Virus record (IMG/VR): IMGVR_UViG_2563366903_000018
DNA: 12,535 nucleotides
Direction: 5' to 3' (one strand)
Origin: a virus
Lineage: Duplodnaviria > Heunggongvirae > Uroviricota > Caudoviricetes
Positions 1 to 9,915 of the stretch are shown here, in pieces. The translations under genes were made by a program, and so were the position numbers. How positions within the stretch are numbered: the first letter of the stretch is position 1; each line of letters begins with the position of its first letter. The notes under the pieces are model-generated. The model saw only the letters and a list, made by a program, of their open reading frames with translations. It did no database searches and was not told where the DNA came from.

Positions 1-567
1 ATGCTTATTGGCTATGTACGCGTGTCAACAAATGACCAGAACACCGATTTGCAACGTAATGCACTGAACTGCGCGGGATGTGAGCAGATTTTTGAGGACA
101 AAATCAGTGGCACTAAGTCCGACAGACCGGGGCTGAAAAAACTACTCAGGACACTATCGGCAGGAGACACGCTGGTTGTCTGGAAGCTGGACAGGTTGGG
201 GCGCAGTATGCGGCATCTTGTTACGCTGATAGAAGAGTTGCGCCAGCGTGGTGTGAATTTCAGAAGCCTGACTGACAGTATTGATACCAGTACCCCAATG
301 GGCCGTTTCTTTTTTCATGTCATGGGTGCCCTGGCTGAAATGGAACGCGAACTGATAGTTGAACGTACCAGGGCAGGGCTGGCTGCAGCTCGTGCCAAAG
401 GCAGAGTAGGTGGACGCCGTCCTAAGTTGACCACCGAACAGTGGGCACAGATTGGGCGTTTACTCGAGGCCGGAGAATCAATACAGCGTATTGCACTGAT
501 TTTTGATGTAGGCGTTTCTACCATTTATAGAAAATTTCCGGCAAATAAGATCAATGAATCCCCCTGA
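1..567 (+). CDS. Serine DNA invertase (Gin/Pin/Hin family site-specific recombinase)
   Basis: 188-aa ORF starting at window position 1. N-terminus MLIGYVRVSTNDQNTDLQ matches the catalytic-serine motif of small serine invertases, with a C-terminal helix-turn-helix region; remembered similarity to phage Mu Gin along most of its length. Sits where P2-like phages carry the region next to tail fibre genes. Confidence 0.9.
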   Translation: MLIGYVRVSTNDQNTDLQRNALNCAGCEQIFEDKISGTKSDRPGLKKLLRTLSAGDTLVVWKLDRLGRSMRHLVTLIEELRQRGVNFRSLTDSIDTSTPMGRFFFHVMGALAEMERELIVERTRAGLAAARAKGRVGGRRPKLTTEQWAQIGRLLEAGESIQRIALIFDVGVSTIYRKFPANKINESP

Positions 568-2764: not shown

Positions 2765-2898
2765 CGGTTGACGATCTGGTGGCAGATATCGCCACCATTT
2801 TTCACTGGCCGCCATCCGTTACTGACGTTATGCCGCTGACCGAAGTGCTGGAATGGCGGTATAAAGCGATTCAGAGAAGCGGGGCCAACGATGAGTGA
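2462..2898 (+). CDS. E+E': gpE+E' frameshift fusion protein (E frame 2462..2725, then -1 frame re-reading 2725 through stop at 2896..2898)
   Basis: Manual translation of the -1 frame from 2725 gives VEEVGACRFTDSLTVDDLVADIATIFHWPPSVTDVMPLTEVLEWRYKAIQRSGANDE, ending at TGA 2896..2898, which overlaps the T start codon at 2891. This is the conserved G/GT-like chaperone frameshift arrangement known for P2 E/E'. Confidence 0.65.
2719..2725 (+). promoter_or_regulatory. Programmed -1 ribosomal frameshift slippery site T_TTT_TTG (E to E')
   Basis: Heptamer TTTTTTG lies in the zero frame of E as T TTT TTG (codons Phe-Leu at 2720..2725). The -1 frame is open from here to a stop at 2896..2898. Confidence 0.7.
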
Positions 2899-3204
2899 TA
2901 ACAACCTGCGTCTGCAGGTCATTCTTAATGCGGTTGACAAGCTCACCCGCCCATTTCGATCTGCGCAGGCCAGTTCAAGAGAACTGGCTGCTGCTGTCAA
3001 AAAATCCCGCGATGCAATAAAGCAGCTTGATCAGGCCGGGAGCAGTCTGGACAGCTTCCGAAAGCTGCAGGCAGAAAATCAGAAATTAGGCGACAGGCTG
3101 AACTATGCCCGCCAGCGTGCAAATTTGCTCAGTCAGGAACTGGGAGCGATGGGGCCGCCTTCGCAACGTCAGGTTGTTGCTCTGGGCCGTCAACGGCTGG
3201 CTGT
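2891..3204 (+). CDS. T: Tail tape measure protein gpT, exon 1 (5' part; predicted 5' splice site after 3204)
   Basis: ORF starts MSDNNLRLQVILNAVDKL directly after E'. The reading frame runs into a stop at 3224..3226 only 7 codons after a GTGTG motif at 3205. The tape measure frame resumes about 1.8 kb downstream in the same frame. Confidence 0.55.
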
Positions 3205-3715
3205 GTGTGTCACGAAGGAGAACTGATAGCGGCAATATGAAAATTGCAGCATAAGTTATCCATGCTCTGAGGTGGGTGGAGGTGGGCCCTCCGGTCAGGG
3301 TTTGCAGGAACACTGACCAAACGACCCGGTGCTGCTTCATTCTAAGGAATGTAGTGGTGAGCGACTCGGGAAAAGGCAGAGATCTACTGTCACGTGGGGT
3401 TCGGGAAGCTGAACGAAAGTAAACTGTCCGATGAAGCATCGAAATCTTAGATGATGTCAAAATGGGGCCGTACAGCCGTCCTCTGATAAGCGCAGAAGAC
3501 ACCTGCTTACTGACTGCGCGGCATCCGGTGTTAAGGCAGCAGGATCCCGGGCCAGACCATCTCAGGGAACGTGAGAACCTGTTTCCGGCACGTATCGGGA
3601 AACAGGGGCGGACCCATTCGTAGTAGTGATGAAAGATCTGTAATGGGTCTGGAGCGAAGGGATGGGGATCACATTCATTGCAAAAGACACAACCCATAAG
3701 GGGATGATGTAACTG

Positions 3716-4948
3716 ATGCAACGAAAATCATTCGAAATACCAAAAGCACTGGTCTGGGCATCATATCTGGATGTGCGTCGCAACAAGGGAGCCCCCGGAT
3801 GCGACGGACAGACTTTGAAAATGTTCGACCAGCAACGTGATGGCAATCTATACAAGATCTGGAACCGGCTATGTTCGGGAACATGGTTTCCGCCACCTGT
3901 GCTGGAAAAACGGATCCCGAAGCCGAATGGCAAGGAGCGCATTCTGGGGATCCCAACAGTATCCGATCGAATTGCTCAGGGAGCGATAAAACTTTTTATG
4001 GAAGAAAAGCTTGACCCGATTTTCCATGCTGATTCTTATGGTTACCGACCAGGCAAATCAGCTCATGACGCTCTGAAACAATGTGCCATCCGGTGCTGGC
4101 GTTATAGCTGGATACTGGAAGTGGACATCAGTGCGTTTTTCGACCATGTGAGACATGATCTGGTGCTCAAAGCACTGGAACACCACGGGATGCCTAAATG
4201 GGTCATCCTGTACTGTCGACGCTGGATGGAAGCACCAATGCAGAGTTGTGAAAATGGAGAATTAATAACCCGAACACGAGGCACTCCGCAGGGCGGGGTC
4301 ATTAGTCCGCTACTTGCTAACTTGTTCCTTCACTATGCATTTGATTTGTGGATGGAAAGAGAATATCGGGGGGTACCGTTTGAGAGGTACGCTGATGATA
4401 TTGTAGTACATTGTTCACGAATGAGTGATGCAACAAGGCTGAAGAACAGGTTATCGGAGCGCTTCTCGGAAGTCGGGCTGGTCCTGAATGCAGGGAAAAC
4501 GAATATCGCCTACATTGACACGTTTAAAAGGAGAAACGTCGCAACGAGTTTCACCTTTCTCGGATATGACTTCAAAGTGCGTACGCTGAAGAATTTCAAA
4601 GGCGAACTGTACCGAAAATGCATGCCGGGTGCGTCAAATGCAGCAATGCGCAAAATAACAGAAACAATCAAGAAGTGGCGTATACATCGCTCAACAGCTG
4701 AGAGTTTGCTGGATTTTGCGAGGCGCTACAATGCGATAGTGAGAGGCTGGATCGAGTACTACGGAAAGTTCTGGTCCAGAAATTTCAACTATCGACTGTG
4801 GAGTGCAATGCAGTCACGTCTGCTCAAGTGGATGCAGTCTAAATACAGACTTTCGAACCGGAGGGCTCAGCGAAAGCTGACGCTGGTAAGGAAGGAGTAT
4901 CCGAAGCTATTTGTCCACTGGTATTTACTACGTGCATCGAATGAGTGA
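3716..4948 (+). CDS. Group II intron-encoded reverse transcriptase/maturase (En-minus type)
   Basis: 410-aa ORF with RT motifs: IPKPNGKERILGIPTVSDR (RT1/2), YGYRPGKSAHDAL, LEVDISAFFDHVRHD (RT3), GTPQGGVISPLLANLFLH (RT4), YADDIVV (RT5 catalytic), FLGYDF (RT7), and maturase domain X RGWIEYYG. No Cys/His-rich HNH endonuclease region after domain X. RBS-like aagggga about 11 nt upstream of the ATG. Confidence 0.9.
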   Translation: MQRKSFEIPKALVWASYLDVRRNKGAPGCDGQTLKMFDQQRDGNLYKIWNRLCSGTWFPPPVLEKRIPKPNGKERILGIPTVSDRIAQGAIKLFMEEKLDPIFHADSYGYRPGKSAHDALKQCAIRCWRYSWILEVDISAFFDHVRHDLVLKALEHHGMPKWVILYCRRWMEAPMQSCENGELITRTRGTPQGGVISPLLANLFLHYAFDLWMEREYRGVPFERYADDIVVHCSRMSDATRLKNRLSERFSEVGLVLNAGKTNIAYIDTFKRRNVATSFTFLGYDFKVRTLKNFKGELYRKCMPGASNAAMRKITETIKKWRIHRSTAESLLDFARRYNAIVRGWIEYYGKFWSRNFNYRLWSAMQSRLLKWMQSKYRLSNRRAQRKLTLVRKEYPKLFVHWYLLRASNE

Positions 4949-4952
4949 TCAA

Positions 4953-5028
4953 GAGCCGTATGACGCGAGAGTGTCACGTACGGTTCCGTGAGCAGCCGGG
5001 GAGTGAAATTCTCTCCGGCTGACTCGAC
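4953..5028 (+). ncRNA. Group II intron ribozyme domains V and VI (catalytic hairpin plus branch-point hairpin)
   Basis: Domain V GAGCCGUAUGACGCGAGAGUGUCACGUACGGUUC (4953..4986): 10-bp lower stem, AGC catalytic triad at 4954..4956, 2-nt CA bulge on the 3' strand, 4-bp upper stem, GAGA (GNRA) tetraloop. Domain VI: 11-bp stem 4993..5003 with 5011..5021, bulged A at 5022, short basal helix, intron ending ...GAC at 5028. Confidence 0.75.
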
Positions 5029-7792
5029 TCAGCGCCTGGAAGAACGCCAGAAAAAGCTGCAGCAGCAGACGGCGCTTGTGCGTGCTGAACTGTACCGGGC
5101 GGGAATTTCTGCGAAAGACGATGCGGGAGCAACTGCCCGTTTAGCCCGTGAAACATCACGTTATAACCAGGAACTTTCGAAACAGGAGGCGCGGCTGAAG
5201 CGACTGGGGGAAGCTCAGCGCAGGATGAATGCAGCGCGTGCCAGTTATGCCCGTTCGCTGGAGGTGCGTGATCGTATTGCAGGTGCCGGAGCCACCACCA
5301 CGGCTGCAGGGCTGGCAATGGGTGCGCCAGTGATGGCGGCAGTAAAAAGCTATACCAGCATGGAAGATGCCATGAAAGGTGTGGCAAAGCAGGTCAATGG
5401 TCTGCGTGACGATAATGGCAACCGCACTGCACGTTTTTATGAAATGCAGGATGCCATCAAGGCTGCCAGCGAACAGTTGCCGATGGAAAACGGTGCGGTG
5501 GACTTCGCTGCACTGGTTGAAGGTGGTGCGCGCATGAACGTCGCAAACCCTGACGACAGCTGGGAAGATCAGAAACGTGACCTGCTGGCCTTCGCCAGTA
5601 CGGCAGCAAAGGCGGCAACAGCCTTTGAGCTGCCAGCGGATGAACTGTCAGAAAGTCTGGGGAAAATCGCCCAGCTCTACAAAATCCCCACCCGCAATAT
5701 TGAACAGCTCGGTGATGCGCTGAACTATCTGGATGATAACGCCATGTCGAAAGGGGCAGACATCATTGATGTGATGCAACGTCTGGGCGGTGTGGCTGAC
5801 CGTCTGGATTATCGTAAAGCGGCGGCGCTGGGTTCCACCTTCCTGACACTGGGCGCTGCGCCAGAGGTTGCAGCCAGTGCAGCAAACGCGATGGTGCGTG
5901 AATTGTCCATTGCCACCATGCAAAGCAAGAGTTTCTTTGAAGGGATGAATCTGCTGAAACTCAATCCTGAAGTGATTGAAAAGCAGATGACGAAGGATGC
6001 GATGGGAACCATCCAGCGCGTGCTGGAGAAGGTAAACGCGCTGCCGCAGGACAAGCGCCTGTCTGCCATGACTATGTTGTTTGGTAAAGAGTTTGGCGAT
6101 GACGCGGCGAAACTGGCAAACAACCTGCCGGAACTGCAGCGTCAGTTAAAACTGACAGCGGGCAATGATGCGCTTGGCTCCATGCAGAAAGAATCCGACA
6201 TTAACAAGGATTCACTTTCTGCGCAGTGGTTGCTGGTCAAAACCGGAGCGCAGAACACCTTCAGCAGCCTGGGCGAAACGCTGCGCCAGCCGCTGATGGA
6301 TATTCTGTACACGGTGAAAAGCGTCACGGGGGCGTTGCGTCGCTGGGTGGAAGCTAACCCGGAACTGACAGGCACACTGATGAAAGCATCGGCTGTTGTG
6401 GCTGCGGTTACCGTCGGCCTCGGCACCTTAGCGGTGGCGCTGGCTGCAGTGCTGGGGCCGCTGGCAGTGATCCGTCTGGGATTCTCTGTGTTGGGTATCA
6501 AAACGTTATCTTCCGTTACGGCAGCAGTAACTCGAACCAGCAGCGCGTTGTCCTGGCTGGCTGGCGCACCACTGGCACTGCTGCGACGCGGGCTTGCTTC
6601 ATCGGGCAACGCCGCAGGTTTACTTACTGCGCCGTTGTCGTCTTTGCGCCGCACGGCATCACTGACGGGAAATGTCCTGAAAACTGTAGCAGGTGCGCCG
6701 GTTGCACTTTTGCGGTCTGGATTATCCGGTTTACGTGCTGTTGCTGTGATGTTTATGAATCCTCTGGCGGTACTGCGCGGTGGACTGGCCGCCGCAGGCA
6801 CGGTGCTGCGAGTACTGGCATCTGGTCCACTGGCGATGCTGCGCGTTGCCCTGTATGCCATATCTGGTCTGTTAGGTGCTCTGCTCAGTCCGATAGGTCT
6901 TGTGGTTACTGCACTGGCGGGCGTGGCGCTGGTTGTCTGGAAATACTGGCAACCCATCACCGCATTTCTCGGTGGCGTGGTGGAAGGATTCAAAGCGGCG
7001 GCAGGTCCCATCAGTGCAGCGTTCGAACCGCTTAAGCCCGTGTTCCAGTGGATTGGCGACAAAGTGCAGGCGCTGTGGGGCTGGTTTACTGATCTGCTGA
7101 CGCCCGTTAAGTCGACCTCTGCCGAACTGCAGAGCGCAGCGGCAATGGGGCGGCGATTCGGGGAGGCACTGGCGGAAGGGCTGAATATGGTCATGCATCC
7201 GCTGGACTCCCTGAAATCCGGAGTTTCCTGGTTGCTGGAGAAGCTCGGCATTGTCAGTAAAGAGGCCGCAAAGGCAAAACTGCCGGAAAGCGTGACGCGT
7301 CAGCAACCTGCGACGGTGAATGCAGACGGTAAAGTGATGATGCCATCGGGTGGTTTTCCATCATGGGGATATGGCTTTGCGGGGATGTATGACAGCGGCG
7401 GGTATATCCCGCGCGGGCAGTTTGGCATCGTCGGTGAAAACGGGCCGGAAATTGTTAACGGCCCGGCAAATGTGACCAGCCGGAGAAATACAGCTGCACT
7501 GGCTGCCGTTGTTGCCGGAATGATGGGCGTTGCTGCCGCGCCAGCAGAGCTTCCACCGTTGCACCCCTTGGCACTTCCCGCGAAAGGTGGAGAAGCAATT
7601 GTGAGTCGCGCAGCCACTGTGCCGCTCGTTCAACGGATTGAGGCACCGACGCAGATCATCATTCAGACGCAGCCAGGACAAAGTGCGCAGGATATTGCGC
7701 GGGAGGTGGCACGCCAACTTGATGAACGTGAACGCAGGCTGAAGGCAAAAGCCAGGAGTAACTACAGCGATCAGGGGGGATACGACGCATGA
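5029..7792 (+). CDS. T: Tail tape measure protein gpT, exon 2 (predicted 3' splice site before 5029; stop at 7790..7792)
   Basis: 934-codon open frame (the ORF track starts it at an internal GTG at 4988, inside the intron). Ala/Gly/Leu-rich with a repeat-bearing central region and a C-terminal region typical of tape measure proteins. Same frame as exon 1; predicted junction codon gt|t gives ...ALGRQRLAV-QRLEERQKKLQQQ.... Stop overlaps the U start (ATGA). Confidence 0.6.
6566..6940 (+). repeat. Tandem degenerate repeats of about 20-22 aa within the tape measure protein (PLAxLRxGL-type units)
   Basis: The translation shows consecutive units: APLALLRRGLASSGNAAGLLT / APLSSLRRTASLTGNVLKTVAG / APVALLRSGLSGLRAVAVMFMN / PLAVLRGGLAAAGTVLRVLASG / PLAMLRVALYAISGLLGALLS / PIGLVVTALAGVALVV. 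Confidence 0.6.
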
Positions 7793-9461: not shown

Positions 9462-9680
9462 ATGATGATTTGCCCACTGTGTGGAAGTGCCGCCCATACT
9501 CGCAGCAGTTTTCAGGTATCTTCATTGACCAAAGAGCGTTACAACCAGTGCCAGAACATTAACTGCAGCCATACTTTTGTTACCCATGAAACTTTTGTTC
9601 GTTCGATTGCAACGCCAAAAGAGTCAAATCCGGTTCAGCCACATCCAATGAAATCAGGACAGGTGGCGCTCTCTCTTTGA
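9462..9680 (+). CDS. ogr: Late gene transcriptional activator Ogr (zinc-finger protein)
   Basis: The ORF track starts it at 9429, but the ATG at 9462 has the better RBS and gives a 72-aa protein MMICPLCGSAAHTRSS...YNQCQNINCSHTF with the CxxC...CxxxxC zinc-binding pattern and the length of P2 Ogr. It is the last phage gene before host DNA, as expected for the right end of a P2 prophage. Confidence 0.85.
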   Translation: MMICPLCGSAAHTRSSFQVSSLTKERYNQCQNINCSHTFVTHETFVRSIATPKESNPVQPHPMKSGQVALSL

Positions 9681-9750: not shown

Positions 9751-9793
9751 TTCAGGCAACAAAAAACCCATCAACCTTGAACCGAAATGGCGG
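9751..9793 (-). terminator. Rho-independent terminator for ybjL (minus strand)
   Basis: Perfect 10-bp inverted repeat CCCATCAACC (9757..9766) / GGTTGATGGG (9784..9793) with a 17-nt loop. On the minus strand it is followed by a U-tract (plus-strand AAAAAA at 9751..9756). It lies about 120-165 nt downstream of the ybjL stop. Confidence 0.6.
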
Positions 9794-9915
9794 GGTTGAT
9801 GGGCTCCACAAAATGGGGACATCAAAGAAAAGCAGTGGCACTAATTAAGACTGATGCCCTGCGGAAAAGTTCTGCGGTTGTGCAAAAAAATTTCATTTTC
9901 AGGGCAACTTCAGTT

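Follow-up and report, generated by a model that had tools for sequence, protein, structure and literature searches.

A copy of the group II intron E.c.I3 with canonical domains V and VI in the tape-measure gene of a P2-like prophage of Escherichia coli

Positions 4953-5028 of the analysed window (the whole 12,535-nt stretch of the IMG/VR virus record IMGVR_UViG_2563366903_000018) resemble the two 3'-terminal domains of a group II intron, which raises the question whether this phage DNA harbors a working ribozyme and, if so, which intron it is and how it affects the gene that it interrupts. An earlier note, made from the sequence letters, had described these domains as fully canonical and the intron as probably active. 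The elements of the region are listed here by window position.

4953-4986, plus strand: domain V, the catalytic hairpin, 34 nt (Rfam, fold, covariation)
4954-4956, plus strand: AGC triad of domain V
4967-4970, plus strand: GNRA loop of domain V, GAGA
4976-4977, plus strand: 2-nt bulge of domain V, A4976 and C4977 (register from covariation)
4989-5026, plus strand: domain VI, the branch-point hairpin (Rfam, fold, covariation)
5022, plus strand: branch-point adenosine, bulged, the seventh nucleotide from the last base of the intron (5028)

The region is composed, in this order, of GAGCCGUAUGACGCGAGAGUGUCACGUACGGUUC, CG, UGAGCAGCCGGGGAGUGAAAUUCUCUCCGGCUGACUCG and AC. Domain V has the layout GAGCCGUAU-GACGC-GAGA-GUGUC-AC-GUACGGUUC and includes three G-U wobbles (G4955-U4984, U4961-G4978 and G4965-U4972); in domain VI, an upper helix of 11 bp (4993-5003 with 5011-5021) stands above the bulged A5022, with 3-4 bp below it. 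The triad, the GAGA tetraloop, the 34-nt length and the wobbles that the earlier note had listed for domain V are all present at these positions, as is the 11-bp domain VI helix with a bulged A near its base, which is A5022; this nucleotide is unpaired in both the minimum free energy (MFE) fold and the Rfam alignment. A search with RF00029, the Rfam model of group II domain V/VI (gathering score, 40), produces an end-to-end match to 4951-5028 on the plus strand with a score of 57.1 bits (E = 2.8e-9), so that a covariance-model search, the failure of which had been named as a possible refutation, places the two domains exactly at the flagged region. This 78-nt region folds into exactly two hairpins with an MFE of -45.3 kcal/mol, compared to -23.1 +/- 2.9 kcal/mol for its dinucleotide shuffles (z = -7.6 for the native sequence). 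By the Rfam score, the comparison of the MFE with shuffled sequences and the covariation described below, the domain V/VI structure exceeds chance expectation. In the yeast intron ai5-gamma, domain V is also 34 nt long, with an AC bulge and a GNRA loop, GAAA; the yeast and window sequences have identical lower helices (GAGCCGUAU paired with GUACGGUUC) and the same AC bulge, whereas the upper helices differ and the loop is GAAA in yeast but GAGA in the window.

A search of one-genome-per-species contigs with the intron protein yielded 80 relatives with 44-96% protein identity. In a MAFFT alignment of 22 domain V/VI regions, 95.8% of the cells contain standard pairs, compared to 29-47% in slid controls with the 3' partners moved by 1-3 columns, and both-side changes are found in 16 of the 29 pairs. 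A covariance model derived from this alignment locates domain V/VI directly 3' of the protein gene in essentially every locus. Among 75 distinct relatives, 96.0% of the cells pair and 21 of the 28 pairs show compensatory changes, although this larger alignment was fitted to the model and hence is structure-biased, whereas the MAFFT alignment is free of such bias. In the same 75 sequences, the 14 pairs of domain V are 98.5% paired and nine of them have compensatory changes, as do 12 of the 14 pairs of domain VI. Among the relatives, there is almost no variation in the triad, in the U-G pair adjacent to the bulge (74 of 75) or in the branch A; in the 22-sequence MAFFT alignment, A5022 (column 72) does not vary at all. 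The alignments also set the register of the bulge. The presence of a 2-nt bulge in domain V, noticed previously, stands, but its reading as CA had to be dropped: G4962-C4975 (alignment columns 12-25) covaries between GC and AU and, because this pair switches to A-U in some relatives, the bulge consists of A4976 and C4977. Judging from these alignments, both hairpins are canonical and have been maintained through compensatory evolution.

The limits of the intron and of the interrupted gene are best defined by comparison with uninterrupted alleles.

3205-5028, plus strand: group II intron E.c.I3, 1824 nt, 5' GUGUG ... GAC 3' (boundaries from uninterrupted alleles)
2891-3204, plus strand: exon 1 of a P2-like tail tape-measure gene (gpT-like), 104 codons and 2 nt (ORF list; match of the joined sequence)
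5029-7792, plus strand: exon 2 of the tape-measure gene, with T5029 as IBS3 (spliced ORF; Pfam PhageMin_Tail)

When 3204 and 5029 are joined in silico (...GGCTGGCTGT followed by TCAGCGCC), the resulting sequence is 100% identical over 400 nt to uninterrupted genes from hundreds of E. coli genomes, annotated as "phage tail tape measure protein", with 371 records matching the joined exons at 99% identity or higher. Because a slide of the junction by one base in either direction breaks the exon match, the intron occupies exactly 3205-5028. Its ends (GUGUG at 3205-3209 and GAC at 5026-5028) fit the 5' GUGYG and 3' AY consensus, and the matching copies in E. coli genomes cover window positions 3197-5030 or 3197-5034. 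The intron lies in codon 105, in the sense orientation of the tape-measure gene. The spliced frame is open over 1025 codons and, compared to the tape-measure gene of strain 503440, has two synonymous nucleotide changes and no amino acid replacements. In the unspliced message, the exon-1 frame reaches a stop codon at 3224-3226, 20-22 nt into the intron, yielding a product of 111 amino acids; with the stop this close to the 5' end, ribosomes would be kept off the ribozyme. No convincing sense-strand terminator was detected within the intron, and the outcome of a promoter scan was the same. For annotation, these observations imply that the tape-measure gene should be represented as a join across 3204 and 5029 rather than as two fragments. 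The intron begins 314 nt downstream of the start of the tape-measure gene and leaves untouched a small GpE-family ORF (2779-2898), a frameshift extension of the tail chaperone gene that, as in P2, reaches into the first bases of the tape-measure gene (from 2891). The earlier note saw an active intron as in keeping with a functional tail gene in the phage, but this argument has no force: the exons are 100% identical to intact alleles across 400 nt, and after so recent an insertion no decay would be expected with or without splicing, so that intact exons prove nothing about splicing.

The interrupted gene belongs to a P2-like prophage that is integrated next to rybB/ybjL. With the intron removed, the window aligns gaplessly over 10,711 nt, at 99.0% identity, with a P2-like prophage in the same ybjL/rybB locus of strain ERP001. 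The right end of the prophage carries ogr (9462-9680). A gap of 77 nt separates it from the 3' end of rybB, an sRNA gene on the minus strand (9758-9836; 105.3 bits in Rfam), which is followed by the host genes ybjL, ybjM and grxA. Given this proximity of the ogr end, the attachment site of the prophage seems to be located at or adjoining rybB. Other complete genomes also contain a prophage in this place.

The E. coli 536 genome contains a single copy of the same intron, which differs from the window copy in 36 of the 1824 positions (98.0% identity). The 536 copy, located in PAI I, is E.c.I3, an intron that homes into IS679, a member of the IS66 family (PMC3522654). Under the rule of the intron database, sequences that are more than 95% identical receive one name (as quoted in PMC3552965) and, because the identity to the 536 copy exceeds this threshold, the intron in the window is E.c.I3, an identification that relies on PMC3522654 together with the sequence comparison. 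The 536 and window copies share identical domains V and VI and a 410-aa IEP. E.c.I3 is said to have been first described in two papers by Dai and Zimmerly in 2002. The usual site of this intron is the transposase gene of IS679 and other IS66-family elements, whereas the copy in the window resides in a phage tape-measure gene, and these two sites have only 10 nt in common, CTGGCTGT/TC (here and below, the slash marks the insertion point). Thus, the window copy is an ectopic insertion and not a different intron, and the IS66 location is characteristic rather than defining.

The features that determine the choice of the target and the protein encoded within the intron are as follows.

3278-3394, plus strand: conserved part of domain I (RF01999, group-II-D1D4-2; 93.4 bits, E = 1.9e-18, gathering score 36)
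3192-3196, plus strand: IBS2, AACGG, exon positions -13 to -9 (analogy with RmInt1, PMC4075523, and family-wide complementarity)
3198-3204, plus strand: IBS1, UGGCUGU, exon positions -7 to -1 (7/7 with EBS1, including one G-U)
3445-3449, plus strand: EBS2, UCUUA, in an internal loop 23 nt upstream of EBS1 (homologous loop in relatives; alifold)
3472-3478, plus strand: EBS1, ACAGCCG, in a hairpin loop (compensatory changes between copies)
3533, plus strand: EBS3, one A, the partner of T5029 at the start of exon 2 (column complementarity)
3716-4948, plus strand: reverse transcriptase/maturase (IEP), 410 aa, YADD motif, RT and X domains (Pfam, TIGR04416)

The 7 nt of IBS1 are also found at the IS66 home site. 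The second base of EBS1 tracks exon position -2: it is C opposite G in the window, G opposite C in strain 536 (C3473G), so that each copy fits its own exon, and U opposite A in a relative from a Syntrophaceae metagenome-assembled genome (L011). In most relatives, EBS1 is complementary to the exon at 7/7 positions. Throughout the family, 29-31 nt upstream of EBS1, there is a 5-mer that complements exon positions -13 to -9 in full; in E.c.I3, EBS2 pairs at 3/5 positions with AACGG of the phage exon and, likewise, at 3/5 with AAAAA of the IS66 site. Earlier EBS2 candidates (GUUC around 3399, GUUUCC around 3581 and a UCUU register with AAGA) were dropped after the family-wide scan. The EBS3 column is Watson-Crick complementary to exon position +1 in 33 of 35 introns (A-T in 16, G-C in 10 and T-A in 7). 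Relatives with doubtful 5' ends, probably internal GUGCG matches (e.g., L051 and L065), are omitted from all these EBS comparisons. As predicted from complementarity, the phage site pairs as well as the IS66 home site (EBS1 7/7, EBS2 3/5 and an A-U pair for EBS3) and, the three pairings being equal, should be as good a substrate.

The closest relatives of E.c.I3 in other genera (L006-L012, from Pseudomonas spp. except for the Syntrophaceae sequence) are all inserted in IS66-family transposase genes, within one conserved run of codons, R-K-N-W-L/F-A-G. In three of the Pseudomonas copies, EBS1 is mismatched at exon position -2 and the EBS2 pairing is weak, so that this clade may depend on IBS1 and IBS3 for the choice of its targets.

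The protein is encoded within domain IV of the intron and matches RVT_1 (2.4e-41) and GIIM (1.5e-14) in Pfam. The GIIM match ends at residue 385 and nothing further is detected by Pfam, i.e., the protein has no DNA-binding/endonuclease domain. The profile TIGR04416 yields 394.7 bits (cut-off, 300) over model positions 2-352 of 353, and relatives align with residues 1-409. In every inspected copy (L001-L003), PGAP labels the maturase gene (ltrA; the equivalent of window positions 3806-4948) "incomplete; missing N-terminus". This label looks artefactual because the 410-aa ORF that starts from the ATG at 3716 fits the whole of TIGR04416 and aligns with its relatives end to end; the PGAP pseudogene assignment is likely a systematic mis-annotation, and the maturase gene should not carry it. 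The RT-X architecture without D/En, together with the IIB-type single base pair between EBS3 (A3533) and IBS3, is characteristic of class D (IIB3) introns, to which E.c.I3 appears to be related, RmInt1 being one example; this relationship is judged from 44-49% IEP identity to the relative set. E.c.I3 is absent from the one class D intron table that was consulted.

Further evidence of activity comes from other copies of the same intron. The window copy shows 0/1824 differences from the intron in an IS66 tnpC gene on pSCU-106-1 (L001) and from the one at a non-IS66 plasmid site in strain E02 (L003), and the identical intron sequence at three sites indicates recent mobility. Movement of group II introns requires lariat formation. 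Mutations that disrupt domain V, which the earlier note had singled out as potentially damaging to its case, are absent from the window copy, in which no pair is broken and domains V and VI are the same as in strain 536 throughout; broken pairs do occur in several other E. coli copies. Specifically, the copy in strain D8 has a 1-nt insertion in domain VI and a split protein gene; two E. coli copies have A-C mismatches in domain VI, one of them with a frameshifted protein gene; and the ETEC-2264 copy has G4983A, which breaks the pair of C4956 of the triad. In the more divergent copy from strain M10, all differences in domain V are compensatory.

Several of these copies point to additional insertion sites. 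In L003 (plasmid p2 of strain E02; 1468-1520 and 3325-3350), the identical intron is inserted at GGAAAAATTGGCTTT/TTGACG, with a RelE/ParE toxin gene on one side and a replication gene on the other, and EBS1 is mismatched at exon position -2. In a metagenome contig (L093, ERZ773208), exon 1 of the tape-measure gene and the identical intron are joined to tssK/tssJ in antisense orientation. At the insertion point (L094:41-70), native tssK reads GACTGGCTGT/TCGTCG, with the same 10-nt motif as in the IS66 and tape-measure sites. In another contig (L096, ENA contig ERZ8155881; 261-6596), exon 1 and the intron are joined to a plasmid region with genes for PilI, a TolA-like protein and a relaxase, so that L096 is either a chimera or a further intron copy on a conjugative plasmid. 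Most simply, both contigs are assembly chimeras across two intron copies and expose a further insertion site; L093 then probably reveals an E.c.I3 site in the type VI secretion gene tssK.

The main explanation of these observations is that the window contains a complete, recently mobile copy of E.c.I3 that is very probably a competent ribozyme, inserted in a prophage tape-measure gene. As far as sequence comparison can tell, the earlier proposal of an active intron gains from the zero-difference copies, the complete maturase, the exact boundaries and the three EBS pairings. Several observations count against this explanation: the low exon ligation of the related intron RmInt1 (see below), the PGAP label on the maturase gene, albeit an apparent artefact, and the EBS2-IBS2 pairing of just 3/5, which the home site does not surpass. 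Another is the distribution of the interrupted allele, which was found in 0/5,426 complete E. coli genomes and 0/50,697 phage records, so that there is no sign of circulating intron-bearing phage particles.

Competence of the ribozyme leaves room for an alternative that also accepts working domains V and VI, and which we consider a real prospect, if somewhat short of an even one: E.c.I3 may be a good retroelement and a poor intron, forming lariats and moving while ligating exons inefficiently, in which case the tape-measure gene is in effect knocked down and the prophage, tail-defective or low-yield, persists by vertical inheritance alone. The precedent is RmInt1, in which high mobility is combined with an in vivo yield of ligated exons of just 0.07% (PMC3035460), despite domains as canonical as those of the window intron; its IEP belongs to the same family (44-49% identity) and has the same RT-X architecture. 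The genomic distribution fits as well. The readable flanks of intron-bearing prophages from many samples are nearly clonal (99.3-100% identity over ~3.3 kb), which suggests that a single insertion took place in a single prophage lineage. The allele is missing from sequenced phages and, apart from one contig end, from IMG/VR: a search for viral relatives of the IEP in IMG/VR returned none, the exact 3' junction and domain V have no match in viral contigs, and the 5' junction has one match, in a contig whose sequence stops after 74 nt of the intron. Moreover, the intron sits antisense in tssK and, as this copy cannot splice from the tssK mRNA, E.c.I3 does not spare host genes. Against inefficient ligation, the exon-binding pairings match those at the home site in quality, and the early stop codon would shield the folding of the ribozyme from ribosomes. 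The exact 111-aa truncated product of exon 1 is indexed for public assemblies in 149 blocks, of which most come from gut metagenomes or from draft genomes with contigs that break in the intron; hence the allele is not strongly counter-selected, although a silent prophage would be likewise exempt.

A decayed relic, with right-looking hairpins in a dead element, is very improbable. Many E. coli copies of E.c.I3 are indeed fragmented or mutated (PMC3522654) and PGAP marks ltrA as a pseudogene in other copies, but this reading is contradicted by the lack of any difference from the copies at two other sites, by the complete 410-aa IEP with its YADD motif and full TIGR04416 match, and by domains V/VI with no broken pair and intact EBS/IBS pairings, and was rejected. 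The least credible reading, rejected as well, is that an assembler misplaced a repeated intron into the phage gene: short-read chimeras across E.c.I3 do occur, with tssK or plasmid flanks (L093 and L096), but in the window the sequences on either side of the intron both belong to the tape-measure gene and join with no base lost or gained, the window without the intron is collinear with the intron-less prophage of this locus, many independent assemblies contain the same 5' junction, and one contig (L104) covers both junctions.

For a competent, recently mobile E.c.I3 copy, the following course of events can be proposed. The intron would have entered the tape-measure gene by reverse splicing into a look-alike site. 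According to PMC8914252, the RmInt1 particle, which has no endonuclease, invades single-stranded DNA at the lagging-strand template. Since the IEP of E.c.I3 also lacks an endonuclease, priming would probably have come from the nascent lagging strand, as in RmInt1. On the E. coli map, ybjL lies at ~0.9 Mb in the right replichore, which makes the plus strand of the window the lagging-strand template; the plus-strand insertion fits this template, a weak point because the insertion may have occurred elsewhere. During transcription of the late tail operon, maturase made from domain IV would aid the folding of the RNA. The 2'-OH of A5022 would then attack the junction between 3204 and 3205, with domain V as the metal-binding centre, and the freed exon 1 would attack the junction between 5028 and 5029, releasing the lariat and rejoining an intact tape-measure message of 1025 codons. 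The resulting particle of lariat and protein would be able to invade further sites.

Whether such splicing is efficient bears on the phage itself. It is possible, albeit unlikely, that the intron-bearing P2-like prophage is still infectious, with E.c.I3 splicing efficiently from an ectopic site in an essential late gene. If so, E.c.I3 must splice efficiently in vivo, unlike RmInt1; it would be a natural bacterial group II intron selected to act as a true intron, and a temperate phage would be a vector for E.c.I3 among E. coli. A lysogen would provide a simple read-out of splicing efficiency in vivo, in the form of phage tail production.

Comparison with known systems places this insertion among familiar elements. 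RmInt1 (Sr.me.I1 from Sinorhizobium meliloti, class D or IIB3) resembles E.c.I3 in its RT-X protein without endonuclease, in its size (1884 nt), in its exon recognition (IBS2 at -13 to -9, IBS1 at -7 to -1 and a one-base IBS3; PMC4075523) and in having a transposase gene as the homing target; it differs in the target itself, the IS630-family element ISRm2011-2, and in the EBS sequences. RmInt1-like introns of Mesorhizobium (1884 nt), with 46-47% IEP identity, are part of the relative set. The intron Ll.LtrB, in the relaxase gene of a lactococcal conjugative plasmid, is likewise a sense-strand intron in a gene that the host element needs, and its splicing sets the transmissibility of that element (PMC6003770). 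However, Ll.LtrB is a IIA/ML intron with an endonuclease domain at its natural homing site, whereas the window intron is ectopic and has no endonuclease. Self-splicing introns also interrupt tape-measure genes in prophages of the Bacillus cereus group (PMC2504315), but these are group I introns, a different ribozyme class with another mobility mechanism. A non-exhaustive literature search found no report of a group II intron in a prophage tape-measure gene. Overall, this is a known intron at an unusual site and the novelty is low: E.c.I3 is a named, previously described intron with textbook catalytic domains, which makes the finding ordinary. What the locus adds is that an endonuclease-less intron of IS66 transposase genes entered an essential phage structural gene via 10 nt that mimic its usual target; at least two other sites, in tssK and on a plasmid, carry this motif. 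These insertions form a natural series of retrotransposition events that can be used to study how loosely such introns pick their targets.

Some additional ORFs and the fibre region of the prophage deserve mention. An antisense ORF of 211 aa (3086-3721, minus strand) runs across ribozyme domains I-III; it is called by gene callers, and annotated by PGAP as "hypothetical protein, frameshifted", but is almost certainly spurious. A 934-aa ORF that starts in domain VI matches, in a look-up, only the window's own assembly; the window matches GCA_000408105.1 at 100%. At the left end of the window (1-567), the neighbour of the tail-fibre genes is a gene for a Hin/Gin-type invertase of 188 aa with a Resolvase domain. 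The contigs with the intron allele (L097-L102) contain two arrangements of the fibre and assembly genes, with a fibre of either 465 aa or 514 aa, as expected of an invertible host-range segment that is still flipping.
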